Assembly (NCBI GenBank): GCA_023133275.1
Contig: JAGLWU010000002.1
Location: 2,440-66,439, forward strand
Reading direction: 5' to 3'
Length of the DNA stretch: 64,000 bases
From: Candidatus Moraniibacteriota bacterium
GTDB lineage: Bacteria > Patescibacteriota > Minisyncoccia > Moranbacterales > GCA-2747515
Shown here: positions 16,883 to 63,641 of the stretch, one piece after another
Layout: every line of letters starts with the position of its first letter
Position numbering within the stretch: the first letter of the stretch is position 1
Notes under the pieces: generated by a model
Seen by the model: the letters and a program-made list of their open reading frames with translations, nothing else
What the model was told of the DNA's origin: nothing
Database searches by the model: none
Position numbers and translations under genes: made by a program

Positions 16883-16892
16883 TTTTTTAGTA

Positions 16893-16995
16893 AAAAATCA
16901 ATAGGTGTAGTGTATACCTTTACTATACCTATAGTATACCTATTCTTGAAAAAATGCAATAGGTATAGTGTACACATTTAGTACACCTATTTTTG
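16893..16995. repeat. two tandem, roughly 50-bp, internally palindromic direct repeats (AATAGGTGTAGTGTATAC...GTATACCTATT)
   Basis: Unit 1 at 16893-16948 and unit 2 at 16949-16995, between the Fic start and the mrdA stop. Candidate operator. Confidence 0.6.
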
Positions 16996-30894: not shown

Positions 30895-30903
30895 TTAAAA
30901 ATT

Positions 30904-31389
30904 ATGACTGAATCTAAAGAAATAATTGAAGAAAGTATTGAAAAATTGCTCAATTTGACGGGTTTTGAAGGGGAAATTTCAATTGTAGAGCGTTCGGATT
31001 CTAAAGCGGATTATAAAAATATTAATTGCAACATTGAAATTAAAAAAGATTCAAATTTTATTATCGGTAAAGATGGAGTAACTCTTCAGTCCTTGGAAAG
31101 TCTTTTGAGAATAATTCTTTTTAAAAAAGATGTTAAAGATAGAATTATTATTGATATCAATGATTATCGTGAAAGTAAAAAAAATAATATCAAAAGATTA
31201 GTTTTAGAATTGGCTGAAAAAGTGGCTCGTGAAAAAAAACCTCAGGTTTTAAAACCGATGAATGCTTTCGAGCGAAGAAATGTGCATATTTTTTTGGAAA
31301 ATGATAAACGTGTGCAAACTGAAAGTATTGGCGAAAAATTGGAGCGAAAAATTGTTATTAAACCTCAAAGCATTATTGAATCTTTATGA
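30904..31389 (+). CDS. jag: Jag/KhpB RNA-binding protein (KH plus R3H)
   Basis: Jag_N, then a KH-like region, then R3H (PMNAFERRNVHIFLEN). yidC-jag synteny. Confidence 0.8.
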   Translation: MTESKEIIEESIEKLLNLTGFEGEISIVERSDSKADYKNINCNIEIKKDSNFIIGKDGVTLQSLESLLRIILFKKDVKDRIIIDINDYRESKKNNIKRLVLELAEKVAREKKPQVLKPMNAFERRNVHIFLENDKRVQTESIGEKLERKIVIKPQSIIESL

Positions 31390-38562: not shown

Positions 38563-38819
38563 AGTAAATTTTTATTTATGATGAATGATAAAATTCTTTT
38601 TAAAAATAATGAGTTTTTAAAAAATTTTTAAATTAATACTTTTTAAACTGAGATCTTTTATGATCTGTTTTTTTAAACAAACTTTTTCAAAAAAACTTAT
38701 TTTTTTATTTAAATTAAAGCGAAATAATTTAAAATTTAAAGTCTCTAAAAAAGTTTAATTAAATAGAAAAATTAAAACTTCTTTAGTTAAAAATAATCTT
38801 ACTCAAAAAAAATTCAAAA

Positions 38820-41687
38820 CTATCGATTATTATAAGAAGTAAAACTTAATGCTAAATGAGAAACAAATAACATAACACTGACCATTAAAACCATTTTTAA
38901 AAGAAAAAAGAAATAGGCAGGCGTATTGCTAGCGGTTGTGGCAAAAAATCCGATTGCTTTATTTTTACTCACTGCCTCATCATTATTGCCTGCAACTAAT
39001 CTAACACTTGTACTCATATAAAAATCTGAAATGTCATATTGATTAATGCCAAAAATATTAGCTAAAGCTTCTTTTTTATCAGGTCTATAAACTGCTTTAA
39101 GACTTAAGTTAGTACTTGATTCTGGAACAATTTGTAAAGTTTTTTCATAACTTTTGTCTCCATTAAATTCCCATTCTGTTACTAAATTAGAATCAATAAA
39201 GCTTGGCGTGGTAACAACTTTGAAATCAACGCTATTACCTTCTTCTATTATTTCAATAATTCTATCACTCTTATCTGGAAATTTATTACCTTGCACATCT
39301 ACATAATTTCCTGAAAATTTATAATCAGCATTTTTTATTGGCTTAGCAATTATTTTAGGTTCAACTATTCTAAATTTTCTTGGAACAACTTGATAACCGT
39401 GAGTGTTTTCACTTGGATCATTGTAAACAGCGATAACTTCTACATAATCACCGACATCGCCAACCACAGGAAAAAATATTTTATTTGTATTTGTCTCATC
39501 AATACATTCACTAGAGACACTACTATTACAGGAATAATCTTGACCATTAACTGTCCAAGAAATTAAATCTTCAGTACCATCTTCGGGAATAAACATTTCT
39601 ATTCCAATAATTTCTCCTCTGACCACTCGACAAAGTGCTTCATCAATACCGTCTCCACAAATTTCCTCTTTACTAGAAACAGTTTGTCCATCAGAAGTTG
39701 TTGAATAAGCTTTTAACCGTCCTCCTGATTTTTGAATTGGAATTATTATTGAATTCATTCCATAACTACTAGTATTTCCTTTAAAATTTGTATTGGCTTG
39801 TAGAGTCGTGCAGGCATACCCTCTTCCACCACTGTCAAAGCAAGAATCTGGAAAATCTGCTTCCATATTGAAGGAATTTATATTGTTTCCTTTTGTTTTA
39901 TTGAATATATTACCCGCTTCACGCATTTCTTGAGTAACATCATCACCCTCTTCACAAACAGTATTTTCATTATCTCCACATTTAATATTCCACTGATAAT
40001 GTAATTGTGTTGGATTAAGATTTTTTCCACTATCACTTTTAATTCCAACGTTAAATTCTATTGTGCTACCTACTCCACTTGTTGCAACTAAGTCTCCCCA
40101 ATTTGAAGTTAATGAGAGATTTAATGCATCATATTCACTTGACCCAGGTTCAACTAAATTATCTGCCAAACATTTATTTATTTTTTTATTAGTCATTGCA
40201 GCTGTTGGAACTAATAATTGCTTTCCCTTTACATCTGTCATGTATCCGCCCATTTCCTCTAAATCACAACCTCCCGCCATAAATGAAAAAATTGGCATAA
40301 ATCCTCCACCGTCATCAGTACTATCTTCATCATAATGCGGAGTTGGAGTAGTTGAAAGACCTTCAACTATAACACCAATTCTATCTCCTGGTGAATATTT
40401 AAAAGTTAATTCACTAACACCCTTTCCTCTTATCAAATCTATATCTGGAATACCTAAACTAGTCGTCGCTATTGATGTTGGATCCATACCCAAACTTATT
40501 TTTGTAATCGAATCTAAGGTATTTCCTAAGCCAAGTATTTTTCCATCAAGTCTTGGAAATAAATGCATTTCATCTGAATCATAAGGTTCAAAATCTTCTT
40601 CACTATCTGCACTTACTTCACAATTACTTTCTCCCGGAATACCAGCATTACAATCATTTGCAAGATCTGACGCCTCACAACTTCCATTTTCATAAGAAGA
40701 TGCATCATCAATACTGTAACTATAACTATTCCCCGCTGCTGTTTCACAATTTACAGTAAAAGATCCTGTCTTACCTAAACCTCTTTGAAACATTATTCGG
40801 TTATCTGTTTCCATTCCTCGATATGAAAAACCGCTATCACAACTCACAATATTAGGAGAAGCTGGACATAATATTAAAACGGAATAAGGAACATTTTCAT
40901 CTGAACCATCGGGATTATAATGATGAAAACCAGTATCTGAACCATAATTACGACCGTCTTCTGGACCTGGACACCTACCACCATCTGAGGGCTCATCGTA
41001 ACATTCTTCATAAGATATTTCATCGGCTTCTCCTAATTGATAAAATTTTCCGGCTCCTCCATGCATGTATAAAAGAGCATTTTTCACATCCCTATTATTG
41101 TCTCCACCAAAAAAAGCATCTGCAACTTCAAAAGTTTTTTCTGGTATTTCAAACGGATCTAATATTCCATTACCATTACCGCCATTAAAAATTTGATCAT
41201 GCACCAATGGATTAAAATTAGAATTGGCTTTTATATTTTCTTTTATTGCTCTAAGTTTTCCCTCATTTATAACAGCAGGATCACTTGGATCTGCACCTTC
41301 TGGTATAATGTACCAGGTAAAATAGGCATTTTCATGATTACTTATTCCATCAACAGCAGCAGTTGCTGTAAGATTTTCACCAGCTCTAATTGTTCCTTCA
41401 AAATTTATATTTATTTCTGGTTTTTTTACTTTTCCATCCATTAAATTTAATTGTTCGGTTAGTGGCTCAAGAGATTGCTTTATGTTTATATCAAGCATAT
41501 CTTCGAGAGCTGTTCTTATCGCATCACCAATAGGATCACTAATACCACCTGCTATATTAACAGTTTCAGTTTCTTCTTCATCATCAGCAGCTTGGATAGA
41601 ATAAATTGGTGTTCCAGAAAAGATTAAAATTTCGAAAATAATAAATAGCGAAAATAACTTTTTTTTAAAAACTTTTTGTTTTTTCAT
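38820..41687 (-). CDS. giant Cys-rich secreted or surface protein (955 aa) with a signal peptide and a C-terminal TM anchor
   Basis: Signal MKKQKVFKKKLFSLFIIFEILIFSGTPIYSIQA, more than 30 Cys, C-terminal FFFLLKMVLMVSVMLFVSHL. Part of the T4SS-like block. Confidence 0.6.
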   Translation of the reverse strand: MKKQKVFKKKLFSLFIIFEILIFSGTPIYSIQAADDEEETETVNIAGGISDPIGDAIRTALEDMLDINIKQSLEPLTEQLNLMDGKVKKPEININFEGTIRAGENLTATAAVDGISNHENAYFTWYIIPEGADPSDPAVINEGKLRAIKENIKANSNFNPLVHDQIFNGGNGNGILDPFEIPEKTFEVADAFFGGDNNRDVKNALLYMHGGAGKFYQLGEADEISYEECYDEPSDGGRCPGPEDGRNYGSDTGFHHYNPDGSDENVPYSVLILCPASPNIVSCDSGFSYRGMETDNRIMFQRGLGKTGSFTVNCETAAGNSYSYSIDDASSYENGSCEASDLANDCNAGIPGESNCEVSADSEEDFEPYDSDEMHLFPRLDGKILGLGNTLDSITKISLGMDPTSIATTSLGIPDIDLIRGKGVSELTFKYSPGDRIGVIVEGLSTTPTPHYDEDSTDDGGGFMPIFSFMAGGCDLEEMGGYMTDVKGKQLLVPTAAMTNKKINKCLADNLVEPGSSEYDALNLSLTSNWGDLVATSGVGSTIEFNVGIKSDSGKNLNPTQLHYQWNIKCGDNENTVCEEGDDVTQEMREAGNIFNKTKGNNINSFNMEADFPDSCFDSGGRGYACTTLQANTNFKGNTSSYGMNSIIIPIQKSGGRLKAYSTTSDGQTVSSKEEICGDGIDEALCRVVRGEIIGIEMFIPEDGTEDLISWTVNGQDYSCNSSVSSECIDETNTNKIFFPVVGDVGDYVEVIAVYNDPSENTHGYQVVPRKFRIVEPKIIAKPIKNADYKFSGNYVDVQGNKFPDKSDRIIEIIEEGNSVDFKVVTTPSFIDSNLVTEWEFNGDKSYEKTLQIVPESSTNLSLKAVYRPDKKEALANIFGINQYDISDFYMSTSVRLVAGNNDEAVSKNKAIGFFATTASNTPAYFFFLLKMVLMVSVMLFVSHLALSFTSYNNR

Positions 41688-42373
41688 AATGATAATTTAA
41701 TAATAGTTGTATTAAAAATAATATTTAAAATTAAAAGTAGAAAATATAAAGACCAAATTGATCGAGCAACATTAACTATTTTTCTAAAGAATAAAGTCGG
41801 CAAACTCATCAACAATACAATTAATACAGTTTTTATAGAAAAATTAAAAAAAGACATCAGAAGTAAACAAAATACTATAACAGGAAATATTTTATTTAAC
41901 TGATTGTATTCTTTAGTTATAAAATTTACAAATCCAAAACTAAAAATTACAAAAAATAAATAGAAAATAGCTACAAATATTTCGTATATTAAAAATACTT
42001 GAAACTTTATTGATAAATAACCTACTAATAAATGATAATGTTCTGCTAAAAAAGATTGGGTTATAAATATAATTGAGAACAATCCCAGTGCAAAAGCAAA
42101 AATGATTGGCAAAATTGTTTTGGAAGTATATTTATATTTTCCGATATACATGTCAGCGAAACTTTTTTTTAAAATAATGCGAATGTATAAAATCGGAAAA
42201 ACTACGAGAAATAGGAAGGATCTTAATAAAATTTCTATTATATCTGATCGACCTTTGATTTCTGTGGGCAGTAACCAAAATAATAATAAGCAACTGGTAG
42301 CAAAAAACAGTGAGACTATTAATTCTATTGTTTGGTGTTTTATTTTTTTTAAATCGCTTGCTATGAAATACAT
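41684..42373 (-). CDS. hypothetical polytopic membrane protein (6 TM)
   Basis: 229 aa, hydrophobic throughout. Overlaps the stop of the upstream gene by 4 nt, so it is operonic. Confidence 0.5.
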   Translation of the reverse strand: MYFIASDLKKIKHQTIELIVSLFFATSCLLLFWLLPTEIKGRSDIIEILLRSFLFLVVFPILYIRIILKKSFADMYIGKYKYTSKTILPIIFAFALGLFSIIFITQSFLAEHYHLLVGYLSIKFQVFLIYEIFVAIFYLFFVIFSFGFVNFITKEYNQLNKIFPVIVFCLLLMSFFNFSIKTVLIVLLMSLPTLFFRKIVNVARSIWSLYFLLLILNIIFNTTIIKLSL

Positions 42374-42434
42374 TTTAATTTTGAAAAATAATGTTATATT
42401 TATAATTTACCATAAATCGGATGAATAGTCAGCT

Positions 42435-43136
42435 TTATTCTAAAACTAAATTTGGATATTTTTTCTGTAATTTTTTTACTTCAACTTTAGCTTTTCTAGA
42501 CTCCTTAATTGAATCTTCATATGCTATAAAAACTGTTGCTATACTTATTGGTAAAATTCCTATATAAGGAATTGCGTCTGCTATCAACATTGCAACTCTT
42601 ATTACTCTTTTTTTAGTCCTAGCTTTTCTGTTTCCAACCCGCCAAAGAGAAATTGTTAAATAGATACTTCCACAAAATGCACAAAAACCTCCCACAATCC
42701 AACCAACATAAGGAATAAGCGAAACAATATCTACTATAAAATCTAAAGAAAAAGCTATAATAAAATTTAAAATCCATATTGGTCTTTCATGTCTATTTAT
42801 TCTGCGATAAGATCTTTTTAGTAAAATTTTTGCTTTACGTGGAATTTTTATACCAAACTCTCTTTTGTCTAACTCTTCCTCTCGTTGCAATTGCCTTAAT
42901 TCATTCATTTTTTCTTTCTGTCGATCATCAGAAAAATTTTGACTTACATTAGAATCAAATGTTTGCATAGGTCTAGTTATGTTTCCATAAAGTTTTCTAA
43001 CTTTTTTTCCCTGTTCTTCCTGATCAATATTTTCTTGTAAACGAACATTTCTAAGTTTAGCTTTTGTTTCACTATCTGATCTCGCCTCAGGATTTCGTAC
43101 AAAAAGCCTACCAACATGTTCTTGATCTCTTTCCAT
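42435..43136 (-). CDS. hypothetical membrane protein with a charged N-terminal domain
   Basis: 233 aa. Coiled-coil-like charged N-terminus, three C-terminal TM segments. Confidence 0.5.
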   Translation of the reverse strand: MERDQEHVGRLFVRNPEARSDSETKAKLRNVRLQENIDQEEQGKKVRKLYGNITRPMQTFDSNVSQNFSDDRQKEKMNELRQLQREEELDKREFGIKIPRKAKILLKRSYRRINRHERPIWILNFIIAFSLDFIVDIVSLIPYVGWIVGGFCAFCGSIYLTISLWRVGNRKARTKKRVIRVAMLIADAIPYIGILPISIATVFIAYEDSIKESRKAKVEVKKLQKKYPNLVLE

Positions 43137-43172
43137 ATTTTTATATATTAGACTTCTTAAAAACCCTTGCTA

Positions 43173-43282
43173 CTGTCATCTCGAGCGTAGCGATAGCGAA
43201 GTCAAGAGATCTCAAAACTCTGTAATTGTCTGTAAGCCTTGAGATTTCTCCGTTCCGCTTTGCTTCAGTCAAAATGACATGA
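43173..43282. mobile_element. MITE-like, GC-richer palindromic element (TGTCATCTCGAGCGTAGCG...AGAGATCTC / inverted copy) inside the T4SS-like operon
   Basis: Terminal inverted repeats of about 40 bp: ctgtcatctcgagcgtagcgatagcgaagtcaagagatctc versus reverse complement ctcatgtcattttgactgaagcaaagcggaacggagaaatctc. Related to the TGTCATTCTGA modules. Confidence 0.55.
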
Positions 43283-43335
43283 GTAGATTTTTTTGGAAGT
43301 TTCTTCTTTAAAACACTACAACACAACATTTATAT

Positions 43336-43396
43336 AAATCTAAAAGTCTACCCGTTTACCAGTCTAATTATCTAATAATACTACCAGTCTAAAACT
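43336..43396. repeat. TCTA-type 8-bp phased array (about 7 units)
   Basis: aatctaaa agtctacc cgtttacc agtctaat tatctaat aatactacc agtctaaa. Confidence 0.55.
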
Positions 43397-43418
43397 ACTG
43401 ATACCTAATATCATCAGA

Positions 43419-45266
43419 CTAACGTTGAACACCATCTAATCCAACTTCCTGTTCCAATTCCTCCTGCTCTTTCATTTTTTCCAATTGTCGAGGATCGGAA
43501 GTGATAACTTTATCCTCACTGTAAGAACTAATAATTTTAATCGCGGCATGTTTTGGTCCTGCAAAAAGAATACCCTCTCCTACTCCACTTTCCAAAAGAA
43601 GAAATTTCTCATGATCTGTTAAATAAAAAGTATCCGCAATTACATCCACTGAAGCTGGAGATTGTCGAAGAAGTAATTGGAGCGATGAGTTTGTAACAAT
43701 TGGTTTGCCATAGCGACTCGACATAAAATCACTTACATCCTGTGTAATTGTCGTTAATCCTGTGTAATATTTACGACAACGTTTCGCAATGCTAAACATA
43801 AAAGAAGCTGCGTCTTCGCTCTGCATCATCACCCATGCCTCATCCACTACCACCATTCTCTGAGTCATATTGGAACGCATCTCATTCCAAATAAATTGCA
43901 AAATAATATACATCGCAATCGGTCGCAATTCGTCTTCCAAATCTCTAATGTTAAAAACTACCATTTGATTTTTGATTTCAACATTTGTTGGTCTATTTAA
44001 AAATCCAGAAAAAATTCCCTCGGTATATTTAGCTAATCTTTTTGCCAAAGAATCGCCACCTTCCATATTAACTAAAACATCGTAGAGATCAGACATGGTT
44101 GGATAGCCAGAATGTGGAATAGATCCAAAATTGCTATTTTCATTAATGTCACGTACTGCATAACTTTCTCGAATCGCCCGTTCTAAAACGGTGTCCTCCT
44201 CGGCTGTTACAGAACCTAACATTAAATGCAAAAGTCCAATTAAACCTGCTATCGTATTTCGAAAAACGTCTTGTGGTCTTTCATCGGCAGGAATTGGAGG
44301 TAATTCAAATGGATTTATACAAGCCTTTGAACCTAAAGAAATTCTGATATAACTTCCTGCCACAGTTTGACATAAATGTTTATATTCATTTTCAGGATCA
44401 ATTACAATTACATTTGTTCCAAACATCATTGATCGCAAAATTTCTAATTTAACAAAATAAGATTTACCTGCTCCTGATTTAGCAAAAATTACCATGTTGG
44501 CATTTTCCATGTTAAAACGGTCGAATAAAATTAAACTATTATTATGTCGATTAATTCCGTAAAGAATACCTTCGTTTGAAGATAAATTTGATGAAACGAA
44601 TGGAAAGGTAGTTGAAAGTGGTGCGGTATTTAAATTATTGCCATTATTTAATTTATCTTCACAAAGTGGGATACTGGAAATAAAACCTTGATCCATCCGC
44701 AAAGTAGCTGGTTTAGTGTAAATCATCTGAGCCTCTAAAATTGCAGTAACTTCATTTTTATTTTTTCGTAATTCTTCTTCGTTTTCACCGTAAAAAGTGA
44801 TGTATAAACCAAAGCGGAAAAACCGTTCAGTTCCCTGTTGTAATTGAGTTCTCAAAGTTTCCACATTTTCTAAGGCAGTTTCTAACATTGGGTCGCGAAT
44901 TTTTCCTGCTTCAGCCTCGATGTGCATTTGTGATTGAACGTGAGTTGAGGTTTTTTTCAAATTTTTTAAAACATTGCGAGTGTCTGCTGGATGGATAAAC
45001 ATTGATACGTCCATTGGAAAATCGATGTTGACAATGGGAGAAAACCAGTTATCATTTAAATATCGGGGATATGCCATGACGAATAGAGTGGTTGAAAGTA
45101 CATCGCCAATTTGAATTTTGCTAGCTGAAATTTCTAAAGCACTGGGTGCAATGAGTCCTCTAACGGTGGCTACTCCTTTTTGATAGAATTTTTCACGTTC
45201 TAAGATTTCTTCTGGAGTATCTACAACTATTTGTTCTTGTTTTTTGTTTTTTTTATTGAATAACAT
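43419..45266 (-). CDS. VirB4/TrbE/CagE-family type IV secretion ATPase
   Basis: N-terminal VirB4 region IAPSALEISASKIQIGDVLSTTLFVMAYPRY, Walker A FAKSGAGKSYFV, Walker B MVVVDEAW. Confidence 0.85.
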   Translation of the reverse strand: MLFNKKNKKQEQIVVDTPEEILEREKFYQKGVATVRGLIAPSALEISASKIQIGDVLSTTLFVMAYPRYLNDNWFSPIVNIDFPMDVSMFIHPADTRNVLKNLKKTSTHVQSQMHIEAEAGKIRDPMLETALENVETLRTQLQQGTERFFRFGLYITFYGENEEELRKNKNEVTAILEAQMIYTKPATLRMDQGFISSIPLCEDKLNNGNNLNTAPLSTTFPFVSSNLSSNEGILYGINRHNNSLILFDRFNMENANMVIFAKSGAGKSYFVKLEILRSMMFGTNVIVIDPENEYKHLCQTVAGSYIRISLGSKACINPFELPPIPADERPQDVFRNTIAGLIGLLHLMLGSVTAEEDTVLERAIRESYAVRDINENSNFGSIPHSGYPTMSDLYDVLVNMEGGDSLAKRLAKYTEGIFSGFLNRPTNVEIKNQMVVFNIRDLEDELRPIAMYIILQFIWNEMRSNMTQRMVVVDEAWVMMQSEDAASFMFSIAKRCRKYYTGLTTITQDVSDFMSSRYGKPIVTNSSLQLLLRQSPASVDVIADTFYLTDHEKFLLLESGVGEGILFAGPKHAAIKIISSYSEDKVITSDPRQLEKMKEQEELEQEVGLDGVQR

Positions 45267-45341
45267 TTTTTGTTTTGTAATTAGCGACTGATAAATTAGT
45301 AGCTAGAATTATTGATTATGAATTTATTTTGTATTTTTAAA

Positions 45342-45764
45342 TTACCATTTTATTTTTCTTCGCAACGGATCAGTTATTTTTAAAACTATTAAACTAAACA
45401 TATATAAAAATAACCAAACTTTGAAAAAATATATAATAAAATCAATAATAAAAATTTTTTCAGAATTTAAAATATCTACAAATATAATAGAAAATAATAA
45501 ATATATTGGAATTAATACTAGAACGGAACAAATAAAAATATTATATTTATCCTTTTTAACCTTATTATAAATAAATGCTACTAGGCTAGCAGGTAAAGCA
45601 AAAAATAAAAATTCTAACAAATAAATATCGTGATTATCTGGGGGACACACCCTTAATTGACAATTATACAAAAAAATTAGAAAAATAAATAGTATAGATA
45701 TAATATTCAAACTTAAAAAATATATTATTTTTTCTTTTGTGATTTTCATAAATTTAATTTTCAT
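45342..45764 (-). CDS. small 4-TM membrane protein (possible VirB3-like T4SS component)
   Basis: 140 aa, hydrophobic. Located immediately upstream of virB4. Confidence 0.4.
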   Translation of the reverse strand: MKIKFMKITKEKIIYFLSLNIISILFIFLIFLYNCQLRVCPPDNHDIYLLEFLFFALPASLVAFIYNKVKKDKYNIFICSVLVLIPIYLLFSIIFVDILNSEKIFIIDFIIYFFKVWLFLYMFSLIVLKITDPLRRKIKW

Positions 45765-45801
45765 TGAACAATAGATTATGACCCATTGTTTATAAATAAT
45801 T

Positions 45802-46485
45802 CTACAATCTAACTAATTCAGTCTTTTCAATATTCTTAATCGCTGACTGAGCAAAAACAGACGGATTATACGCATTGTAAAACAATTCAATCAATTCATC
45901 AGTATTCAAAGTCGTAAAATTTAAACCCGTTCCCCCCAACGCCGCCGCAATATGATCAACTCTCTGATAAAGCTGATTTTTATAAGTCTCAAATAATTCC
46001 TTACGCTCAGTTACAACCTGAGAAGGATTCAACAATGACGACATTTTATTCAAAAAACCACCAGTCGTACTCTCAATCGGAGAAAAAGGCACCACAATAT
46101 AAAAATATTTACTCATGATATTAGTAACCTCAGTAAGATGTTGCACGAATGCACGATATTCTGCTGTCTGAATTTTTAACAATTCATTACGTTGTTTTTT
46201 TTCACTTTCTTTTAAACTCTCTAAATATGGTCTAATATTTAATTTCCGAGAACTAATTACGATTTGAATAGGAAAATCTAAAGAATTGAGAAAATTTTGA
46301 TACGCCCCCACAATAGCCACTTGCTCATCAGAAGCTTTCAAATCAAAATTAATTGACGACACTAATAAAACCGATCTCAACGATCCATTTTTTAACACAA
46401 CAACTCCATCTTTAATTGTTTGAATATCAACATATTTTAAAGTGCTGATATTTTGATTTTCTTTTTGTTTTTTCTTTTTCGCCAT
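45802..46485 (-). CDS. hypothetical soluble protein in the T4SS-like cluster
   Basis: 227 aa with no TM. The N-terminus IKDGVVVLKNGSLRSVLLVSS resembles the beta-rich N-domains of conjugation proteins; weak evidence. Confidence 0.45.
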   Translation of the reverse strand: MAKKKKQKENQNISTLKYVDIQTIKDGVVVLKNGSLRSVLLVSSINFDLKASDEQVAIVGAYQNFLNSLDFPIQIVISSRKLNIRPYLESLKESEKKQRNELLKIQTAEYRAFVQHLTEVTNIMSKYFYIVVPFSPIESTTGGFLNKMSSLLNPSQVVTERKELFETYKNQLYQRVDHIAAALGGTGLNFTTLNTDELIELFYNAYNPSVFAQSAIKNIEKTELVRL

Positions 46486-46607
46486 TTTATTTTTGATAAG
46501 TTAGTAACTGGTAATCAGTAACTAGAAATTAATTGTAAATTGCTATTCTAAATAAATACTTTTTTAAGTTCTAAATTGTAAATTTCTATTTTAAAACGTA
46601 GTAATAT

Positions 46608-46650
46608 TTCTACAAATCTAATGGTCTAAAAATCTATCCTCGATAATCTG
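46608..46650. repeat. TCTA 8-bp phased array; its inverted partner lies at 47447-47478
   Basis: tttctacaaatctaatggtctaaaaatctatcc versus reverse complement atattctacaaatctaatggtctaaaaat. Confidence 0.6.
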
Positions 46651-47086
46651 TTCTTTTTTTAAGGATTTCTTCTAATTTATTATTGCCATTAACACCTCTG
46701 GTATCAAGAGTGTGGGCTAATATGGAAATATCATCTGTATCTAACGGTTTTTTATTGTAAACCACTTGATTCATTTCTATCGGTTCAATTTTTTTCTGTT
46801 TTTTTATTTCGGGATCTCTTTGCCAAGTGTAGGCACGTGGTTTAAATATGTAAAGAATGGCAAATCCAACAAATTGAATTAGAGGTAATCCCTGCGGTTT
46901 GTAAAAAGCGAATGAAACAACAATGATAGTAATTGGAATTGCAACGGTATAAAAAGCGGATTCGTCCAATAGTTTCCAAAGAATTACTAAAATTGTTCCG
47001 CCCGCAAAAAACCAGCCTAATTGTTTCCAAGTTAGTGGTCCAACTATTTTATCTTCAATATCGACATACTGTGGTACTACTTTCAT
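46634..47086 (-). CDS. PrgI-family (VirB3-like) small membrane protein of Gram-positive-type T4SS
   Basis: VPQYVDIEDKIVGPLTWKQLGWFFAGG is the PrgI signature N-terminus; two TM helices. Confidence 0.6.
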   Translation of the reverse strand: MKVVPQYVDIEDKIVGPLTWKQLGWFFAGGTILVILWKLLDESAFYTVAIPITIIVVSFAFYKPQGLPLIQFVGFAILYIFKPRAYTWQRDPEIKKQKKIEPIEMNQVVYNKKPLDTDDISILAHTLDTRGVNGNNKLEEILKKRTDYRG

Positions 47087-53961: not shown

Positions 53962-54035
53962 GCGCGTGTAGCTCAGTTGGTTAGAGTGCTTGCTCGACAC
54001 GCAAGAGGTCTCAGGTTCGAATCCCGACACGCGCA
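53962..54035 (+). tRNA. tRNA-Val (anticodon GAC)
   Basis: GCGCGTG acceptor paired with CACGCGC, D-arm TAGCTCAGTTGGTTAGAGT, anticodon stem CTTGC/GCAAG with loop TCGACAC (C at position 33 is unusual), T-arm TCAGG/TTCGAAT/CCCGA. Confidence 0.75.
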
Positions 54036-54041
54036 CAAATA

Positions 54042-54090: not shown

Positions 54091-55254
54091 TTACCGATTT
54101 CCTTTCGCTCGATTGTGAGTTTTACATAACATCTGACAATTTTCAACTGAAGTAGCTCCATTTTTACTCCAAGCTGTAACATGATCAGCATCCATTTCTG
54201 TCAACTTCCAAATTTTATTCTTATTAGCGTCATGTCCAATAGCACAATGTGAACAATTTGATTTATTTTCATTTTTGGCTATTTCTGTTTGTTTTGCATA
54301 AACTAATTTTTTAGTCGCTTCATCAAAAATTCGAACATTTAGCAATTTTGTGTCAACTGAACCACCAAGAATATATTCAAAAATACCTTTACGATTTTTA
54401 ATATACGGATCAGCATAAAGTTTATGTACTTCCGCAGAAACTTTAGCTGGATCATAAGATTTTTTGTGATATTCCTCATACAATCGCCCCCATTCCAATC
54501 CACGCATTTCGCTTTCAACATCTTCAAACACGCCTGAAACCCAATCGATCACACTGTTAAAATAAGTTTTTAATTCATTGATAGTATCATCGTTACGGTG
54601 GCTACTCATATAATCTCCAATATTATTTTCACTAACCCAATCTAAAGCTTGTTCTAAAAATTCTTGTCGGTTGGCACTTCCTTTTATGTAAGCATTCCAT
54701 TTTTGAATATTAGCATTTTGACTATTACTAAATTCTTCTTTGGCGAGAGTTACAAATTGTCCGGAATAAACAGCGTTTAATAATTCTTGATTATTTAAAG
54801 GAACTCCAGCAATATTAATTGTTTTAAACCATTCTTTGATTTCACTTTCACTTCCCTCGCATTGATAAATTAAAAGCTCAGTTTCTAAAATCTTTTTTTG
54901 TTTATCTTCGGCGATTCCGCTGAAATATTGTTCCATACCGTTTTCGTCTTTGATGGCGAATTTATTGGATACGAATCGTCCGATACTAGTAATGCGTTGT
55001 TGTCCATCTAAGACTTCTAAATTGTCATCATCAATTTTATTGAAGTAAATTAATCCTAGTGGATAGCCTTTTAAAATTGATTCGATTACGGCTACATCTT
55101 TTTTACCATCAGCATAAATGTAGTTTCGTTGGTATTCTGGTTGGATAGTTAGTTTTCCTGATAGTCCAAATAATCCTTTGCCTTCGAGTTCGTTATAGAT
55201 AAATCCTTCGCAGATGTCTTTTATGGTGATGTTAGTTTTTAGGGTTGTTTTCAT
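54091..55254 (-). CDS. DUF262 (ParB-like, DGQQR) plus HNH nuclease; GmrSD-like putative type IV restriction/defence enzyme
   Basis: [16 protein letters not shown]262 signature. C-terminal HNH: CSHCA...[12 protein letters not shown]...[10 protein letters not shown]. Confidence 0.7.
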
Positions 55255-55500
55255 TATATTTGTAAAAATTGATTAAAGTTTTTCTTTTTATCTTAAACTA
55301 TGCACTAATTTTATGATATTTTGTGTATAATTGCAAACCTTTGCACAATTTTTTAGTTTTTTTGTACATAGTTTCGGGTCTTTGCACCATTGTGGTGCAG
55401 ACTTGTAATTTTATAGCATCAAATTTGCAAGTATTTTTATTTATAGTTGCAAAAAACGCTAAATTTGTAAGTATAGAAAATTATAGTCTCAAATTTGCAA

Positions 55501-55580
55501 CTATTATTTCTTATAGTCTCTAAAATTACATTATTAGAGACTATTATTCCTTATAGTCTCTAAAATTACATTATTATTTT
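55501..55580. repeat. two tandem 40-bp direct repeats (CTATTATTYCTTATAGTCTCTAAAATTACATTATTA); the second overlaps the Fic gene stop
   Basis: Read directly. A third TTATAGTCTC copy is at 55481. Confidence 0.7.
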
Positions 55581-56645
55581 TATAAGATCATCAAAAAAAT
55601 AGGTTTTATTTTTATTTTTACCGTTATCAGAAATTATTTTTTTATCCTTTAAAAATTTTAAAATTTTAAAAGTATTTGATTTGGGTATTTTAGTTTTAAC
55701 TATGAAGTCCCTTGAATCAAAAAGAGGCATTGAAAAAAGAAAGTCTAAAACTTTAAAATTATTTTTAGGTGTTGGAATATCTACTATTTTATCTTTCAAG
55801 TCGTCATGTAATTTTAAAATTTCTTGTACTTTATTGATATTTTTTATTGACTGTTTTTCTGTTGCAATAAGAAAAAACTTTATCCAGTTTTCCCAATCAT
55901 TATTTTTAGAAATATCTTGTAATCTTTCATAATATTCATCTCTGTGAGTTTCGAAGTACTCACTTAAATAAAACATTGGAGAATGTAGAACTTTTTTATA
56001 GTACAAAAATAGTGGCATTAAAATTCTTCCCGTCCTTCCATTTCCATCCCAAAAAGGATGAATAATTTCAAATTGTGCATGTACTATTGCTAATTGCACT
56101 AAAAAATCTTTTTCATCAAAATGAATATATTTTTCAAATTCTGAAAAGTATTTTTCTATTTCTTGAGGTTCAGGTGGAATATGACTTGCACCTTCAATGC
56201 CCAATCCTTGTTTACCGATAAAAACAGATCCCGTTCTAAATTTTCCAGGTTCTTTTCCGTCTCCTCTTGCTCCTTGTAAAAGTATTTTGTGAATTTTTTT
56301 GATAAGCCTTGTGGAAAGTGGTAATTCATCTAATTTTTCAATTGCCATATTCATGGCTTTTCTGTAATTGATAATTTCTTGAATGTCTTCGTATTTTTCT
56401 GTCTTCTTTTTTGGATTAGCTTCAAATTCTAAAACTTCTTCTAGCGTTGCTTGAGTTCCTTCAATTTTTGAGGATAAAACAGCTTCTTTTGTGGAAAGTG
56501 GGGAAAGTAAAATTTTGGCATTTGGAATGCTTTGTAAAAATCCATCAAATTTTGCTACGGCACGATTTGCTCCTCCAATGTGTTGAACGAAGTCTTCCCA
56601 GTTTAGTTTTTCTAATGGTAGTTTGTGTGGCTTAAATGATTTCAT
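55566..56645 (-). CDS. Fic family protein (Fic_N plus Fic plus C-terminal winged-helix-like tail)
   Basis: SKIEGTQATLEE (Fic_N), HPFWDGNGRTGRILMPLFL (Fic motif). Confidence 0.8.
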   Translation of the reverse strand: MKSFKPHKLPLEKLNWEDFVQHIGGANRAVAKFDGFLQSIPNAKILLSPLSTKEAVLSSKIEGTQATLEEVLEFEANPKKKTEKYEDIQEIINYRKAMNMAIEKLDELPLSTRLIKKIHKILLQGARGDGKEPGKFRTGSVFIGKQGLGIEGASHIPPEPQEIEKYFSEFEKYIHFDEKDFLVQLAIVHAQFEIIHPFWDGNGRTGRILMPLFLYYKKVLHSPMFYLSEYFETHRDEYYERLQDISKNNDWENWIKFFLIATEKQSIKNINKVQEILKLHDDLKDKIVDIPTPKNNFKVLDFLFSMPLFDSRDFIVKTKIPKSNTFKILKFLKDKKIISDNGKNKNKTYFFDDLIKIIM

Positions 56646-56709
56646 GTATTTTAATTATTTATTTAAAAATTTATACTTTGAAACGATTATTTTTATTATA
56701 AAGGAATTT

Positions 56710-56800
56710 TGTCATCCTGAAAAATTATTTTGTAGTTTGCCTTTGTCGGCAGACAGGCGTAGCGGAGAAATTATTTATTTGGGATCTGGGATGAACGCAA
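56710..56800. repeat. TGTCATCCTGAAAAATTATTT hairpin element with REP hairpin 8 nested in its loop
   Basis: gtcatcctgaaaaattatttt GTAG tttGCCTTTGTCGGCAGACAGGC GTAGcgg agaaattatttatttgggatc. Confidence 0.6.
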
Positions 56801-56827
56801 AACTTTAATTTTAAAATAGCTTATAAA

Positions 56828-57457
56828 CTAATTTTTATTTAAAACAATCTTTCCTCTAGTTTTTCTATTTTCATCATTTCCATAGAATCCAGTAATAACA
56901 CTTTCTTTATCTTCGTTAAAAAATAAAACGGCAAAACCATTATGTTCCACAAAACCAGTCGGAATCATTTTTGGATCTTCAGGATTATTTTTATAATGAT
57001 AACCTATCATCCAATTTTTCTTATTATTCTTATCTTGCTTCAAAAAACTAAACGTACTTTCAAATCCTGACTTATCAAAATCACCAGAAAAACTAAAACC
57101 ATTAATAATTTTTTTAATGACAATATCTTTTCCAATCACTTTAGTTTCATACTCTTCCGTATCCCAATTAAATTTATAGGAACTCCAACATTTCATTGTC
57201 CAACTTCCATCAATTTTAGGATATTCTTGAAAACCTAATTGAATAAATATTTTCTTAAAAACCCAATATTTCCATAAATACTTTTCATATAAAATATGAA
57301 GCCCATAAACTATTAAAAAAATAATACTTGATACTATACCATATTTCCAAATATTATATTTAGGATCTATCAAGATGATCTTTTCATTCAAATAATATAA
57401 TACAAAAGTTAAAATTATTATTAATATAATTGCTTTTTTTAAATTTAATTTAGCCAT
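56828..57457 (-). CDS. 2TM plus beta-rich domain protein, Cap15-like candidate CBASS effector
   Basis: Two N-terminal TM helices (AIILIIILTFVLYYL; YGIVSSIIFLIVYGLHIL), then a 150-aa beta-strand-rich soluble domain. The stop lies 12 bp before the nucleotidyltransferase gene on the same strand. Confidence 0.5.
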   Translation of the reverse strand: MAKLNLKKAIILIIILTFVLYYLNEKIILIDPKYNIWKYGIVSSIIFLIVYGLHILYEKYLWKYWVFKKIFIQLGFQEYPKIDGSWTMKCWSSYKFNWDTEEYETKVIGKDIVIKKIINGFSFSGDFDKSGFESTFSFLKQDKNNKKNWMIGYHYKNNPEDPKMIPTGFVEHNGFAVLFFNEDKESVITGFYGNDENRKTRGKIVLNKN

Positions 57458-57469
57458 CGTTGTTATTTT

Positions 57470-58387
57470 TTAATCATTACAAAAATCAGCAATCGCAATT
57501 ATAAATTTATAAGTATTCTCTAAATCCCACATTTTATCAGAAAATAGCATATCTTGACCATTAGCACATTCATAATTTTTTATATTTTCATTTTTTATAT
57601 CATTTGACCAATTTCGAATTATTTTAATAAGCATATCTTGATAGCTTCCATTAAAAATTTCAATTGGAGAATTATAAACTAAATTTTCAACAAAGTATGA
57701 CGGTGCTGAATCTTTCTCTATCTTCATATCTTGCAAAAGTTTTTTCTTCATATTTTTAAAAATACGAACAACAGATTTAAATTTTCCGTTTGTTCTGTCA
57801 TTTAAAGAACTACAATTTTTTAAATGCTCTTTTGGATAATTAATAATAACTTCTCTTGTTCCAGAATTAAATAACTTAATTCCAGGAATATAACTTTTAT
57901 TATTTAAGGAAATAAATCTTTCATATTTTTTATGTTTAAAAGCAGGCACAACATCAGCATTAACTCTATAAGTATTAGCTGGAACTTTTAAACTCTTATT
58001 ATCAAATTTAATTGAGGTGTCAAAATACATTTCAAGCACTTCATGTACATCTTTTTTAAATTTATGGAAATCATACTCAGAGCTATCATAGGAAATTTTA
58101 AAAACTTCTTTTTCTATTTCACTTAAATGATTTATATCGTAAGAAAAAGATTTCTCTAATTGAATAACAACATCAACATCGCTATCAACTTTTATATTAG
58201 TGCTATTCGCATAAGAGCCCTGTAAATATATTTCACAATCAGAAGATTCTATTGAATAATTATGGTTTTTAGAAACTACATGAGAAATATATTTATCTAA
58301 AGCCTCTCTAATTTGTTTGTGTGTATGTATATATCTTGTCGCAACAGGTACATTTGCCCAAGTGCTTAATTGTTGTTCTGTAATCAT
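57470..58387 (-). CDS. cGAS/DncV-like nucleotidyltransferase (CD-NTase/OAS-fold), candidate CBASS cyclase
   Basis: GS-x11-DVD (IYLQGSYANSTNIKVDSDVDVVI), third acidic strand NADVVPAF, OAS/cGAS-type helix SAPSYFVENLVYN. 305 aa. Confidence 0.65.
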   Translation of the reverse strand: MITEQQLSTWANVPVATRYIHTHKQIREALDKYISHVVSKNHNYSIESSDCEIYLQGSYANSTNIKVDSDVDVVIQLEKSFSYDINHLSEIEKEVFKISYDSSEYDFHKFKKDVHEVLEMYFDTSIKFDNKSLKVPANTYRVNADVVPAFKHKKYERFISLNNKSYIPGIKLFNSGTREVIINYPKEHLKNCSSLNDRTNGKFKSVVRIFKNMKKKLLQDMKIEKDSAPSYFVENLVYNSPIEIFNGSYQDMLIKIIRNWSNDIKNENIKNYECANGQDMLFSDKMWDLENTYKFIIAIADFCND

Positions 58388-58405
58388 ATTTTTAAAATTA
58401 AAAAA

Positions 58406-59458
58406 TTATTTTCCCCTATGTTTAATAAAAATTCTCTTAAAAGTTTCTTTACCATTTAAATATAAGCCTTTTCCAAAAATTCCGTTCGGATCTTGATCTA
58501 CTCCTCGATTTGATCCAATTAATTCAAACTGCTCAGGAGAATATTTATTAAGAAAACTAATCGGCACACCCATCACCCCATCAAAATCACTCGGAATATT
58601 TTTCACTAATGAAACCTCTATTGCATTATAATTATCATATTTTTCAAAGGGTTTTTTTGTTACAAACTTCATTATTTCTGATTCAGTCATTAACGATAAA
58701 GGTTGATGACGTTTACCATGATCAATATTAGTAAACCAGATTGTTCCAGCAACAAACGCATATTTATTCCCATCTTCTTCTTTGTGAAAATTTTCATAAC
58801 TATCAGGAACTTGATACCATACATTTCGTCCATCATTTTTTCCAGCACCAATCCACATTTTATTTTCCTTAATCAATGGAAAAACCTCCTTATAAGTAAT
58901 CGCATTCATATTCCCAATAATCACAAACAACTTCCCCGCCTCCACAATCCACCCCAAAAAATCCCGAAACAACGAAAACGGCGGATTCGTAATAATTACA
59001 TCAGCCTCATCCCGCAACACCTTAATCTCATCACTCCCAAAATCACCATCCCCCTTCAAATAACTCCATTCCAAATCATCAACATCCACTTTACCATCGC
59101 CCGTCTTATCATGCATCAAAGTAAAAATCTTCCCATGCTTTTCAGTCTTACTTTCATCAAACTGCGGATCATCCGTTTCAAAAAGAGTCGGTTGATAATT
59201 ATTTTTACAATTCTTACTTTCCGTTGCATAACTAGTACTAATCAATTTTTTCAAACCAAACCTCTCAAAATTTTGAGCAAAAAACTTAGTAAAATTACTC
59301 CATTCCGGATCATCACACGGCAATAAAATAGTCTTATTTCGAAAAACATCAGGATTATACTCAATATAAGCGTTAATTTCTTTTTCAATATCATGATACT
59401 GAGTATAAAACTCATCATTCTTTGCTTTCTTTGCATTTGTGAGATTGCTATTTGCCAT
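58406..59458 (-). CDS. N6-adenine DNA methyltransferase, M.EcoRI-family-like (NPPF)
   Basis: N-terminal KNDEFYTQYHDIEKEI, SAM region ILLPCDDPEWS, catalytic DVIITNPPFSLF. An 18-bp gap to the nucleotidyltransferase gene suggests co-transcription. Confidence 0.55.
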   Translation of the reverse strand: MANSNLTNAKKAKNDEFYTQYHDIEKEINAYIEYNPDVFRNKTILLPCDDPEWSNFTKFFAQNFERFGLKKLISTSYATESKNCKNNYQPTLFETDDPQFDESKTEKHGKIFTLMHDKTGDGKVDVDDLEWSYLKGDGDFGSDEIKVLRDEADVIITNPPFSLFRDFLGWIVEAGKLFVIIGNMNAITYKEVFPLIKENKMWIGAGKNDGRNVWYQVPDSYENFHKEEDGNKYAFVAGTIWFTNIDHGKRHQPLSLMTESEIMKFVTKKPFEKYDNYNAIEVSLVKNIPSDFDGVMGVPISFLNKYSPEQFELIGSNRGVDQDPNGIFGKGLYLNGKETFKRIFIKHRGK

Positions 59459-60080
59459 ATTTATGAATTACACGATTAAATTACATTTTTACTTTTAAAA
59501 ATATTCATTAATATTAAACATAAAAATACAATTTTGTCAAATAAAAACTGTTTACTATAAAAATAAATTTACATTAATCCATTATGTAATATAGCATAAA
59601 ATGTCTATTAAAGCAATAGTAAAAGTAGTAATTCCTTACGTTTATCTTCTTGAAAAAAACCATTCTTTTTCAAAATAAATTTTAAAAAAATCAGAAAAAA
59701 TATTTATTTGGTGCTATATTAGGTATGTTATATTTAAAATAATGCAAATGTGTCGTTAAAATCCGATACTAATTAATTTTTAGCATATTCCCCGCTGTGG
59801 ACATAAAATAATCTCTAAAATATATAAGTTGCAATGAAAATAAAATAAATACTTTTGTAGCAATTTTAAATCAAAAAGATGGCATAACAGTTTATTCATA
59901 TTAAGTCAATCCTTTAATTTACCAAAATCCACAATTTATAAATATCTGGATTTCATATTGATAAAAACAGTTTTTTCAAGGTTTTTGTTAATTTTGTTGA
60001 ATTAAGGTTGAAAAAGAATATTTGGATAAATATTTCATTATCTGAAAAAAAGATAATTTGATTTAAAGGAAAATAAGTTT

Positions 60081-60299
60081 ATGGGACATCTTAATCCTAA
60101 AAAATCTTTACGAGAAATTAGAATTTTACCAAAAAATATTGATTTTACGATGGGTTATGGTATTTATGGTAATGAAGTAGCTTTTATTCCATCACAAAGG
60201 GAAAATTATGATTAGGTGATTGATAGTAAAGAATTGGGTGAAACGATGAAGAATCATTTTGATTATTTCTGGGGAATTTCTAAAAAGTATATAAAATAA
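60081..60299 (+). pseudogene. small ORF interrupted by an in-frame TAG (60213-60215); likely gene remnant
   Basis: MGHLNPKKSLREIRILPKNIDFTMGYGIYGNEVAFIPSQRENYD, then TAG, then VIDSKELGETMKNHFDYFWGISKKYIK in the same frame. Confidence 0.2.
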
Positions 60300-60327
60300 T
60301 CTATTTGTTGGGTTTTTGTTAAATTCT

Positions 60328-60565
60328 TTGTTCCACGTGGAACAATTGTGATAAAAAAAGGTATAATTGTTCCACGTGGAACATTAAAATATATTTAAAA
60401 CAAAAAATTGTTCCACGTGGAACAATTTTTGGTATTTATTAGTTTTATTTGAATTAGTGAATAGTTTTCGTAGCAAACGGTTTGAAACCGTTCACCACAA
60501 TAATTATAAGAAATTTATTAATTTTGTTGTCTCTTTTTTTATATATTTTGTTCCACGTGGAACAA
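60328..60565. promoter_or_regulatory. array of four 18-bp palindromes TTGTTCCACGTGGAACAA (three perfect, one 17/18), candidate operator/iteron sites
   Basis: Copies at 60328-60345, 60367-60383, 60408-60425 and 60548-60565. Spacings 39, 41 and 140 bp. Confidence 0.55.
60470..60498. repeat. REP-like hairpin 7 (GTAGCAAACGGTTT g AAACCGTTcacc), degenerate
   Basis: GTAG head and an AAACGGTTT/AAACCGTTT stem, sitting between palindrome copies 3 and 4. Confidence 0.4.
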
Positions 60566-60590
60566 TTTGAGTATTCAATTTACAAATGAT

Positions 60591-61322: not shown

Positions 61323-63392
61323 ATGGGAATACATAAAATAAAAAAACGTAATGGCAATGTAGTAGATTTCGATATCTCAAAAATAGAAAGTGCGATCGAA
61401 AAAGCCTTTTTAGCGACAGGAATAAAAGACGATTCAAGTAAAATTTGTGAAAAAGTTTATGCAGAATTAAAAGAAAAATATAAAGATAGCGTTCCTACCG
61501 TTGAAGAAATCCAAGATGCTGTAGAAGATATTCTAATTAAAGAGGATTATGTTGAAACTGCTAAGTCATACATTCTTTACCGTCAAAAAAGAATCGAGGA
61601 TCGAGCGGATGAAAATGTGATGGTGGATGTAGAAAAAACCATGGGAGAATACCTCGATCGATTGGACTGGCGAGTTGATGCTAATTCAAATCAAGGATAT
61701 TCATTGGGAGGTATGATTCTTAACACTTCTGGAAAAGTTACTGCTAATTATTGGTTATCTCACATTTATCCAAAATCTGTGGGCGAAGCTCATCGTAATG
61801 CTGACATTTACATTCATGATTTAGATTTTTTTGCTGGATATTGTGCAGGATGGAGTTTACGAGCTTTATTAGAAGAAGGCTTTAACGGTGTGAACAATAA
61901 AATTGAATCTAAACCGCCAGAGCATCTTTCTAGTGCAGTTTCTCAAATGGTTAATTTTTTAGGAACTTTGCAAAATGAGTGGGCTGGAGCACAAGCCTTT
62001 TCTAGTTTTGACACATATTTAGCACCTTTTGTCAAGAAGCGAGAACTGGAAATTAGAGATGATATTGAAAATTTTGAAATAGAATTTGAATCAGAAGAGA
62101 AAAAAGAAAAATATATTGCTAAAATTCTTGAAAAATACGTTTATCAAAGTGTTCAGTCATTTGTTTTTAATTTGAATATTCCATCAAGGTGGGGGAATCA
62201 AACTCCTTTTACTAATATTACTTTGGACTGGACTTGCCCTGAAGATTTGAAAGAAAAAAGATTATTATTAGGTGGAAAGCCATTTAAGTATACTTTCGGT
62301 GAGTTAAAAAAAGAAATGGATATTGTTAATAAAGCTTTTATTAAAGTGATGACGAATGGAGATGCCAAAGGACGAACTTTTACTTTTCCAATTCCAACTT
62401 ATAATATTACTAAAGATTTTGATTGGGATGATCAAAAAGTTTTACCACTTTTTGAAATGACTGCTAAATATGGAACTCCTTATTTCCAAAATTTCATTAA
62501 TTCTGATTTAAATCCAAGTGATGTGCGGTCAATGTGTTGCCGTTTACAGTTAGATTTAAAAGAATTGCGAAAAAGAGGTGGAGGATTATTCGGTTCAGCG
62601 GAAATGACAGGTTCAGTCGGGGTTGTTGATGTTAATATAGCTAGAATTGGTTACACTTTTGCTGGAGACAAAGAAGGTTTTTTTGCTAGAATTAAAGAAT
62701 TAATGGAATTAGGGAAAACATCTTTAGAAATTAAAAGAAAAGTTATTCAAAAATGGATGGATCGTGGTTTATTTCCCTACACAAAACGTTATTTAGGAAA
62801 ATTGGACAGTCATTTTTCAACCATTGGAGTGAACGGAATTAATGAGGCAATTCGAAACTTTACTAAAGATAAAGAAAATATTACTACAGAATATGGTCAA
62901 GAATTTGCTAAAGAAGTCCTTGATTTTACTAGAAATATTTTGTCTGAATTTCAAGAAGAGACTGGTAATATGTATAATTTGGAAGCTAGCCCGGGAGAGG
63001 GTGCAACTTATCGTTTTGCTAAAGAAGATCAAAAAAAGTTTAAAGATAGTATTCAAGCGGGAACTGAAGATGCACCTTATTACACTAATTCTTCGCAAAT
63101 TCCTGTTGGTTATACGGATGATGTGTTTGAAGCTTTGGATTTACAGGATGAATTGCAGACGAAATACACTGGTGGAACAGTTTTTCATGCTTATATGAGT
63201 GAAAAGATTAGTTCAGGTGAATCCTGTCGTGATTTAGTGAAAAAGATTTTGACTAATTATCATCTCCCGTATCTTACAATTACTCCAACTTTTTCTATTT
63301 GCCCCAAGCATGGTTATTTAAAAGGAGAGCATGAATTTTGTCCAAAGTGTGATGAGGAATTGGGTATTATGGATGGTGAAATAGTTGATTAA
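61323..63392 (+). CDS. nrdD: anaerobic ribonucleoside-triphosphate reductase NrdD (class III), lacking its glycyl-radical tail
   Basis: ATP-cone (KIKKRNGNVVDFDISKIESAIEKAF), core, C-terminal zinc site CPKHG...CPKCDEE. Ends with TAA exactly where the RVxGY strand would begin. Confidence 0.9.
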   Translation: MGIHKIKKRNGNVVDFDISKIESAIEKAFLATGIKDDSSKICEKVYAELKEKYKDSVPTVEEIQDAVEDILIKEDYVETAKSYILYRQKRIEDRADENVMVDVEKTMGEYLDRLDWRVDANSNQGYSLGGMILNTSGKVTANYWLSHIYPKSVGEAHRNADIYIHDLDFFAGYCAGWSLRALLEEGFNGVNNKIESKPPEHLSSAVSQMVNFLGTLQNEWAGAQAFSSFDTYLAPFVKKRELEIRDDIENFEIEFESEEKKEKYIAKILEKYVYQSVQSFVFNLNIPSRWGNQTPFTNITLDWTCPEDLKEKRLLLGGKPFKYTFGELKKEMDIVNKAFIKVMTNGDAKGRTFTFPIPTYNITKDFDWDDQKVLPLFEMTAKYGTPYFQNFINSDLNPSDVRSMCCRLQLDLKELRKRGGGLFGSAEMTGSVGVVDVNIARIGYTFAGDKEGFFARIKELMELGKTSLEIKRKVIQKWMDRGLFPYTKRYLGKLDSHFSTIGVNGINEAIRNFTKDKENITTEYGQEFAKEVLDFTRNILSEFQEETGNMYNLEASPGEGATYRFAKEDQKKFKDSIQAGTEDAPYYTNSSQIPVGYTDDVFEALDLQDELQTKYTGGTVFHAYMSEKISSGESCRDLVKKILTNYHLPYLTITPTFSICPKHGYLKGEHEFCPKCDEELGIMDGEIVD

Positions 63393-63473: not shown

Positions 63474-63641
63474 ATGCAAAATGCAAAGCGAACTCGTTGT
63501 GAGGTTTGGACAAGAGTGATGGGATATTTTCGTCCAGTTTCATTCTTTAATATTGGGAAGAAATCTGAACATAGAGGTAGAAAACATTTTGAGGAATGTG
63601 TTTGTGCTAACAAGGATTTTAGTGAGAAGTATTCTGATTAA
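63474..63641 (+). CDS. stand-alone NrdD glycyl-radical domain (55 aa), in frame with nrdD after an 81-nt spacer carrying stop codons
   Basis: MQNAKRTRCEVWTRVMGYFRPVSFFNIGKKSEHRGRKH aligns with the E. coli NrdD tail TRRVCGYLGSPDARPFNAGKQEEVKRRVKH. Followed by a terminator. Confidence 0.7.
   Translation: MQNAKRTRCEVWTRVMGYFRPVSFFNIGKKSEHRGRKHFEECVCANKDFSEKYSD

Follow-up and report, generated by a model that had tools for sequence, protein, structure and literature searches.

A probable chromosomal parS cluster of four identical 16-bp palindromes in an uncultured member of Candidatus Moranbacteria (Patescibacteria/CPR)

The stretch of DNA analysed here (64 kb, called the window below) comes from an uncultured organism whose reads were obtained from a South China Sea cold seep (PMC9357000). 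In NCBI, proteins of the window (MCK4635295.1, MCK4635268.1) carry the name 'Candidatus Moranbacteria bacterium'. Its gene content is that of a housekeeping chromosome, with rpoD, dnaG, pyrG, the L9 gene, PBP2, mreC, the S12-S7-EF-G genes, rpsA, cmk, tilS, ftsH and a T4SS-like cluster. The repeated palindromes that form the subject of this analysis are found in a 1.13-kb AT-rich non-coding stretch (59459-60590, GC 0.23), which has a defence island on one side and, on the other, a gene for a small membrane protein and then nrdD. The features used in the text are listed below.

26436-26942, - strand: DUF4446 gene
30154-31389, + strand: yidC-jag
54091-59458, - strand: defence island of five genes, following tRNA-Val (53962-54036)
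60081-60300, + strand: ORF remnant with an in-frame TAG at 60216
60329-60564: whole putative parS cluster, four sites in 236 bp of AT-rich non-coding DNA
60329-60344: putative parS-1, TGTTCCACGTGGAACA, a perfect 16-bp palindrome equal to P. aeruginosa parS2/parS3 (PMC4368675)
60368-60383: putative parS-2, TGTTCCACGTGGAACA, core perfect, the mismatch to the 18-mer being in a flank base only
60409-60424: putative parS-3, TGTTCCACGTGGAACA, within a 28-bp palindrome flanked by A5/T5, AAAAATTGTTCCACGTGGAACAATTTTT (60403-60430)
60549-60564: putative parS-4, TGTTCCACGTGGAACA, 26 bp beyond the stop codon of the - strand membrane-protein gene
60591, - strand: end of the membrane-protein gene (160 aa)

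The five genes of the island encode a REase_II-like GmrSD_N/HNH protein, SoFic, a CBASS 2TM (Cap15-like) effector, a CBASS oligonucleotide cyclase and an EcoRI-like Type II methyltransferase, the last of which has its start codon at 59458 and is without an obvious cognate EcoRI-type nuclease. The ORF remnant looks like the C-terminal end, about 70 residues long, of a TrmB-like regulator and gives a colinear, weak match (E = 0.07) to a TrmB-family protein of a Kerfeldbacteria genome (L123). The palindromes lie at least 28 bp downstream of this remnant, which ends at about 60300, and at least 26 bp downstream of the membrane-protein gene stop (60591), while the nearest start codons are those of the methyltransferase (about 870 bp away) and of nrdD (61323, about 760 bp away with a gene between). 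The four sites are unchanged in L001-L003, three assemblies made independently from this organism, and the single SNP among these assemblies falls in the remnant (60210 G>T in L003). With Rfam at gathering thresholds, the only matches in the window were four tRNAs, and the non-coding stretch had none. An extra palindrome, AACGGTTTGAAACCGTT (60467-60491), is located between the third and fourth sites; its sequence is unrelated to parS and it carries no T-run.

A search of the window for the 18-mer TTGTTCCACGTGGAACAA gave matches with 0 mismatches at 60328, 60408 and 60548 and a 17/18 copy at 60367 (last base T), with start-to-start spacings of 39, 41 and 140 bp, which bears out both the positions and the spacings that an earlier note on this DNA had read from the letters. 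On allowing up to 3 mismatches we found no further match in the 64 kb, and as dinucleotide shuffles expect about 0.01 matches, the repetition is beyond chance, as had been claimed. The 12-mer core TTCCACGTGGAA with at most 1 mismatch is present at the same four places only in the 64-kb window. Also, a search of the window for TGTTNCACGTGNAACA with up to 2 mismatches gave no site beyond the cluster, and a single one, at 10057, had 3 mismatches; the cluster is the sole occurrence of the motif in the window and the contig flanks. Neither hundreds of dispersed copies nor a location at the terminus of a mobile element, which the earlier note had named as the observations that would speak against its proposal, was found in the 64 kb. 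On aligning the copies, the invariant unit across all four is the 16-mer TGTTCCACGTGGAACA and the bases outside it vary, those around the core being tt/at, at/tt, at/at and tt/at for sites 1-4, respectively. The AATT flanks that had been described for every copy are therefore seen in part: site 3 alone has the full AATT...AATT palindrome of 22 bp, whereas the flank bases differ at the other sites.

This 16-mer has been described before. The parS2 and parS3 sites of P. aeruginosa are exactly TGTTCCACGTGGAACA, termed 'the perfect palindrome' (PMC4368675 Table 1), as is the parS of P. putida, while the 22 sites of M. xanthus have TGTTCCACGTGGAACG and the general parS consensus TGTTNCACGTGAAACA is given for B. 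subtilis, C. glutamicum and Burkholderia chromosome I (all PMC7022226 Table 1). The match is thus 16/16 for P. aeruginosa parS2/3 and P. putida, one base away for M. xanthus, and 14 of the 15 specified positions for the general consensus, i.e. one base off. With the form of the consensus quoted in PMC7022226, tGTTNCACGTGAAACa, the sites share the 16-bp inverted repeat and the CACGTG centre, and they differ at position 12, which is G here and not A, giving a perfect palindrome of the GTTCCAC half-site; all four sites are 16-bp inverted repeats that follow either this consensus or the GTTCCAC half-site variant. It may be noted that the motif had been said to match no known box, which is wrong, since the 16-mer is a published chromosomal parS (PMC4368675, PMC7022226 Table 1) that was absent from the list of boxes considered, but the generic inference of a binding-site array for a dimeric DNA-binding protein was right. 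The eight papers listed as containing the 16-mer string all concern ParB and parS. Chromosomal parS sites exist in few copies per genome, either intergenic or intragenic, and serve ParB nucleation, spreading and SMC loading. The sites of B. subtilis Spo0J were reportedly treated by Lin and Grossman in 1998, and a survey of chromosomal parS is said to have been published by Livny et al. in 2007.

To place the motif across bacteria, one genome per species (596 Gb) was scanned for the 16-mer, which gave at least 120 loci of 8 kb. The raw count of a 16-mer in 596 Gb is uninformative (chance alone yields about 100), so the weight rests on the clustering of copies and on their association with parAB. 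The matches listed span Bacteroidota, Alpha- and Gammaproteobacteria, Acidobacteriota, Planctomycetota, Verrucomicrobiota and Nitrospirota, and are also found in Actinomycetota, Firmicutes, Myxococcota, Bdellovibrionota and Patescibacteria. Between 2 and 5 copies are present in 34 of the 120 listed loci, and the spacings between neighbours there include 27, 36, 41, 43, 43, 46, 47, 47, 49 and 53 bp, values similar to the 39 and 41 bp of the window. On searching with profile HMMs, ParB was found in 27 and ParA in 28 of the 120 listed loci. Taken together, ParA and/or ParB is present within 8 kb in 30 of the 120 listed loci (910 kb) as against 2 of 80 control nrdD loci (923 kb), both control matches being weak or partial, and the association with a parA-parB operon in other genomes that is looked for in a parS site is therefore observed. 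The par genes are often less than 1 kb from the motif in the listed loci, and for ten sampled ORFs Pfam confirmed ParB_N with HTH_ParB (ParB_C in some) and ParA-type AAA_31/CbiA domains. The copy clustering and the parAB association cannot be chance. Homologues of YidC or Jag were present in 13 of the 120 listed loci; yidC and jag are classic origin-region genes.

The closest comparison comes from 80 metagenomic nrdD relatives. In the one with the highest NrdD identity (L177; 77%, partial match; GC 0.32), the non-coding DNA that separates a tRNA from nrdD carries 12 sites with 0-2 mismatches within about 700 bp (491-1191), directly upstream of nrdD, and parS-like sites are absent in the other 79 nrdD loci. 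A parS array beside nrdD is therefore conserved in the nearest relative. The array in L177 is without a neighbouring defence island or membrane-protein gene, which we take as an argument for a chromosomal array and for insertion of the island next to it. Half of the L177 copies have CACATG/CATGTG or CACGTA centres, which fit CpG-to-TpG/CpA transitions. Among other CPR genomes, four perfect copies are present in 1.4 kb of Kerfeldbacteria L123 and three perfect copies in 1.3 kb of a Patescibacteria MAG (L029). The bases next to the 16-mer vary among the copies of L177, L123 and L029, as they do among the four of the window, and the conserved unit is the 16-mer itself. A search for literature on ParB or parS in Patescibacteria/CPR gave nothing usable.

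Considering the sequence identity to characterised parS, the 16-bp unit, the local clustering and rarity, and also that the exact 16-mer goes with parAB across phyla and that the array is kept at the same locus in the closest relative, we regard it as very probable that the four palindromes represent the parS sites of a Candidatus Moranbacteria chromosome, which make up the cis-acting centromere used by the ParABS system. The nearest known counterpart is the chromosomal parS of P. aeruginosa and P. putida (parS1-4 near oriC; Bartosik, Jecz, Lagage et al.), with which the 16-mer is identical (parS2/parS3; P. putida consensus). Both there and here a cluster of four high-affinity sites is present, the binding here being read from the sequence, but here the host is an uncultured Moranbacteria (CPR) of 29.5% GC, the four sites fall within 236 bp and parAB is not within the 64 kb. 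The arrays of M. xanthus (22 sites, TGTTCCACGTGGAACG) and Streptomyces coelicolor (21 sites) are alike in having many close, near-identical parS copies in one centromere region, and the 12 sites in about 700 bp of L177 resemble these multi-site arrays, to which they are comparable in copy number; however, the M. xanthus and S. coelicolor arrays flank parAB and span tens of kb in large genomes, whereas those of the window and L177 are compact and beside nrdD. The centromeres of plasmids and phages (F sopC, P1 parS) and the Noc sites are similar as repeated palindromes at which ParB-family HTH proteins nucleate a larger complex, but their recognition sequences differ (the Noc-binding site NBS is ATTTCCCGGGAAAT) and the motif here fits chromosomal parS.

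The window was also searched for ParA and ParB, using signature regexes and then profile HMMs for which 27 ParB and 23 ParA ORFs from the listed loci served as input, and neither was found in the 64 kb, with nothing better than E ~0.1. Precomputed Pfam hits show that par genes are absent from the remainder of the contig as well (2.5 kb on the left and 0.4 kb on the right). The upkeep of four copies here and twelve in L177 nevertheless points to a cognate ParB, and it would be the organism's own ParB that binds the four sites. As for the position on the chromosome, a divergent strand switch at about 27 kb is followed by tRNA-Gly and then by yidC-jag, and the neighbourhood formed by DUF4446, the strand switch and yidC-jag, at a distance of 29-33 kb from the cluster, might represent the origin region, so that an origin-proximal location of the cluster is hinted at. 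In the window dnaA and rpmH-rnpA are absent, there is no convincing DnaA-box cluster (counting perfect and 1-mismatch boxes, the mean is 3 per 600 bp and the maximum 9), and the GC skew merely tracks gene strand.

Other readings of the palindromes have to be weighed against chromosomal parS. The earlier note had offered an operator cluster or iterons. An operator array for a dedicated transcription factor (e.g. TrmB-like) that controls the defence operon, the membrane-protein gene or nrdD would agree with the repeated palindromic sites typical of dimeric regulators, with the TrmB-like ORF remnant that adjoins the cluster, with the intact TrmB-family gene 480 bp from the four-site cluster in Kerfeldbacteria L123 and with the L177 array directly upstream of nrdD. 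Yet the sites are 3' of both flanking ORFs, with start codons about 760-870 bp away, and a promoter-like scan shows no enrichment (15 found, 16 expected); what adjoins them of a TrmB-like gene is truncated and interrupted by an in-frame stop, and the 16-mer, which equals an experimentally defined parS, is kept across many phyla with parAB and with no particular regulator. Because the sites are not at a promoter, we find operators very unlikely. Iterons are unlikely too, since neither a replication initiator nor a plasmid-like replicon lies close by. The CACGTG core was also considered as the recognition site of the adjacent EcoRI-like methyltransferase and rejected, as 16 bp and not 6 are conserved and the motif is pan-bacterial. 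There is, to our mind, only a slight chance that the cluster serves the partition of a mobile element integrated here (an ICE, a plasmid or an island) and is not the host's own centromere: it does abut the defence island beside tRNA-Val (54091-59458), and a T4SS-like gene cluster is present at 37-47 kb, but no ParA/ParB, integrase or replication gene is linked to the sites in the window, no integrase was found in the island, and no tRNA-Val-derived att repeat exists beyond an 11-bp A/T match. Moreover, the sequence is that of the canonical chromosomal parS, as opposed to plasmid and phage centromeres, which are element-specific (PMC7022226), and L177 has the array beside nrdD without the island.

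The hairpin-forming nature of the copies suggests two further readings. As extragenic palindromes they might be REP- or MITE-like, or the terminal inverted repeats of a small non-autonomous element (60328-60565), given that the outer copies extend to 33-nt inverted arms that are 85% complementary and that an IS200-like Y1 transposase gene is present at 9344-9754; against this, there are no further copies in the 64 kb plus flanks, the arm extensions are low-complexity A/T runs with no target-site duplication evident, and for such elements an exact conservation of the 16-mer across phyla is unexpected, while the parAB association holds across genomes, all of which makes this reading hardly tenable. 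Nor is it at all likely that the palindromes are primarily intrinsic terminators between convergent transcription units. The sites do follow the 3' ends of ORFs on both strands, and site 3 fits the stem-plus-T-run pattern in either orientation, with an RNA fold of -13.9 kcal/mol (z = -4.4), but sites 1, 2 and 4 are weak hairpins (about -8 kcal/mol, 7-bp stem) with no T-runs, and a terminator needs neither an identical 16-mer four times nor a match to parS. Termination is plausible only as a secondary role of site 3.

For chromosomal parS, a mechanism is available from the known systems. ParB dimers bind parS via the HTH, parS promotes cooperative CTP binding and clamp closure, sliding away from parS and, by repeated loading, the formation of a kb-scale complex, and ParA acts on this ParB complex to segregate the origin regions, where SMC is loaded (PMC7022226). 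By analogy, a ParB (Spo0J) dimer would recognise each 16-bp palindrome by its helix-turn-helix domains, and binding to parS would lead to CTP-dependent closure of the N-terminal gate, after which the ParB clamp would slide onto the flanking DNA and free the site for the next dimer. The four adjacent sites in 236 bp would then function as one loading or nucleation zone of high rate, and the resulting ParB-DNA partition complex, spanning several kb, would be moved by ParA and would load SMC condensin on the origin-proximal region. Such spreading of ParB would extend over the gene for the membrane protein and nrdD as well as over the defence island. ParB spreading has little transcriptional effect in most species; P. 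aeruginosa ParB represses genes beside the intergenic parS3 and parS4. Also, class III ribonucleotide reductase consumes NTPs including CTP. As the array immediately precedes nrdD in the closest relative and is separated from it by one small gene here, an effect of ParB-CTP beyond segregation can be conceived, whereby the array is tied to nrdD in this lineage and spreading ParB-CTP may modulate the adjacent class III ribonucleotide reductase together with the CBASS/SoFic/restriction-modification island; a milder version is that compact multi-copy parS arrays may be the typical centromere format of CPR. We put this idea forward as a long shot. If the milder version is true, such arrays could locate the poorly defined origin regions of CPR.

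In terms of annotation, what was an 'unknown operator or iteron' becomes a probable centromere, and so a probable origin-proximal region, of an uncultured cold-seep Moranbacteria. This would imply that a lineage with a reduced genome keeps a canonical ParB with the standard parS specificity. The element, its sequence and its mechanism are already known, and being textbook matter they bring no new biology; it is the host, which is uncultured, that is new. On the practical side, the sites could anchor the orientation of CPR MAGs with respect to the ori region, and together with heterologously expressed ParB they could be used in binding or plasmid-stabilisation assays.

Some other observations were made in the window. 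The T4SS-like cluster (37429-47086, - strand) encodes a P-loop ATPase of the VirB4/TraG type (43419-45266) and a member of the PrgI family (46634-47086), and has several large ORFs that gave no Pfam hit, one of them of 955 aa; it resembles the Patescibacteria T4SS that the title of bioRxiv 10.1101/2025.01.22.634366 names. Three separate Fic-domain proteins are encoded in the 64 kb (8291-9277, 15478-16977 and 55566-56645), one of which is fused to a RhuM domain. Besides the IS200-like Y1 transposase ORF mentioned above, there is a recombinase zinc-ribbon fragment (3901-4752) that overlaps tRNA-Asn. Lastly, nrdD appears split, with a 689-aa ORF (61323-63392, + strand) that stops just past the first CxxC of the C-terminal zinc ribbon, and with the glycyl-radical segment (RVMGYFRP) in a separate 55-aa ORF (63474-63641, + strand). 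The second ORF follows the first in frame after 81 nt that contain four in-frame stops. As the large ORF has the same end point in the close relatives L127-L129, the split looks conserved and not an assembly error.
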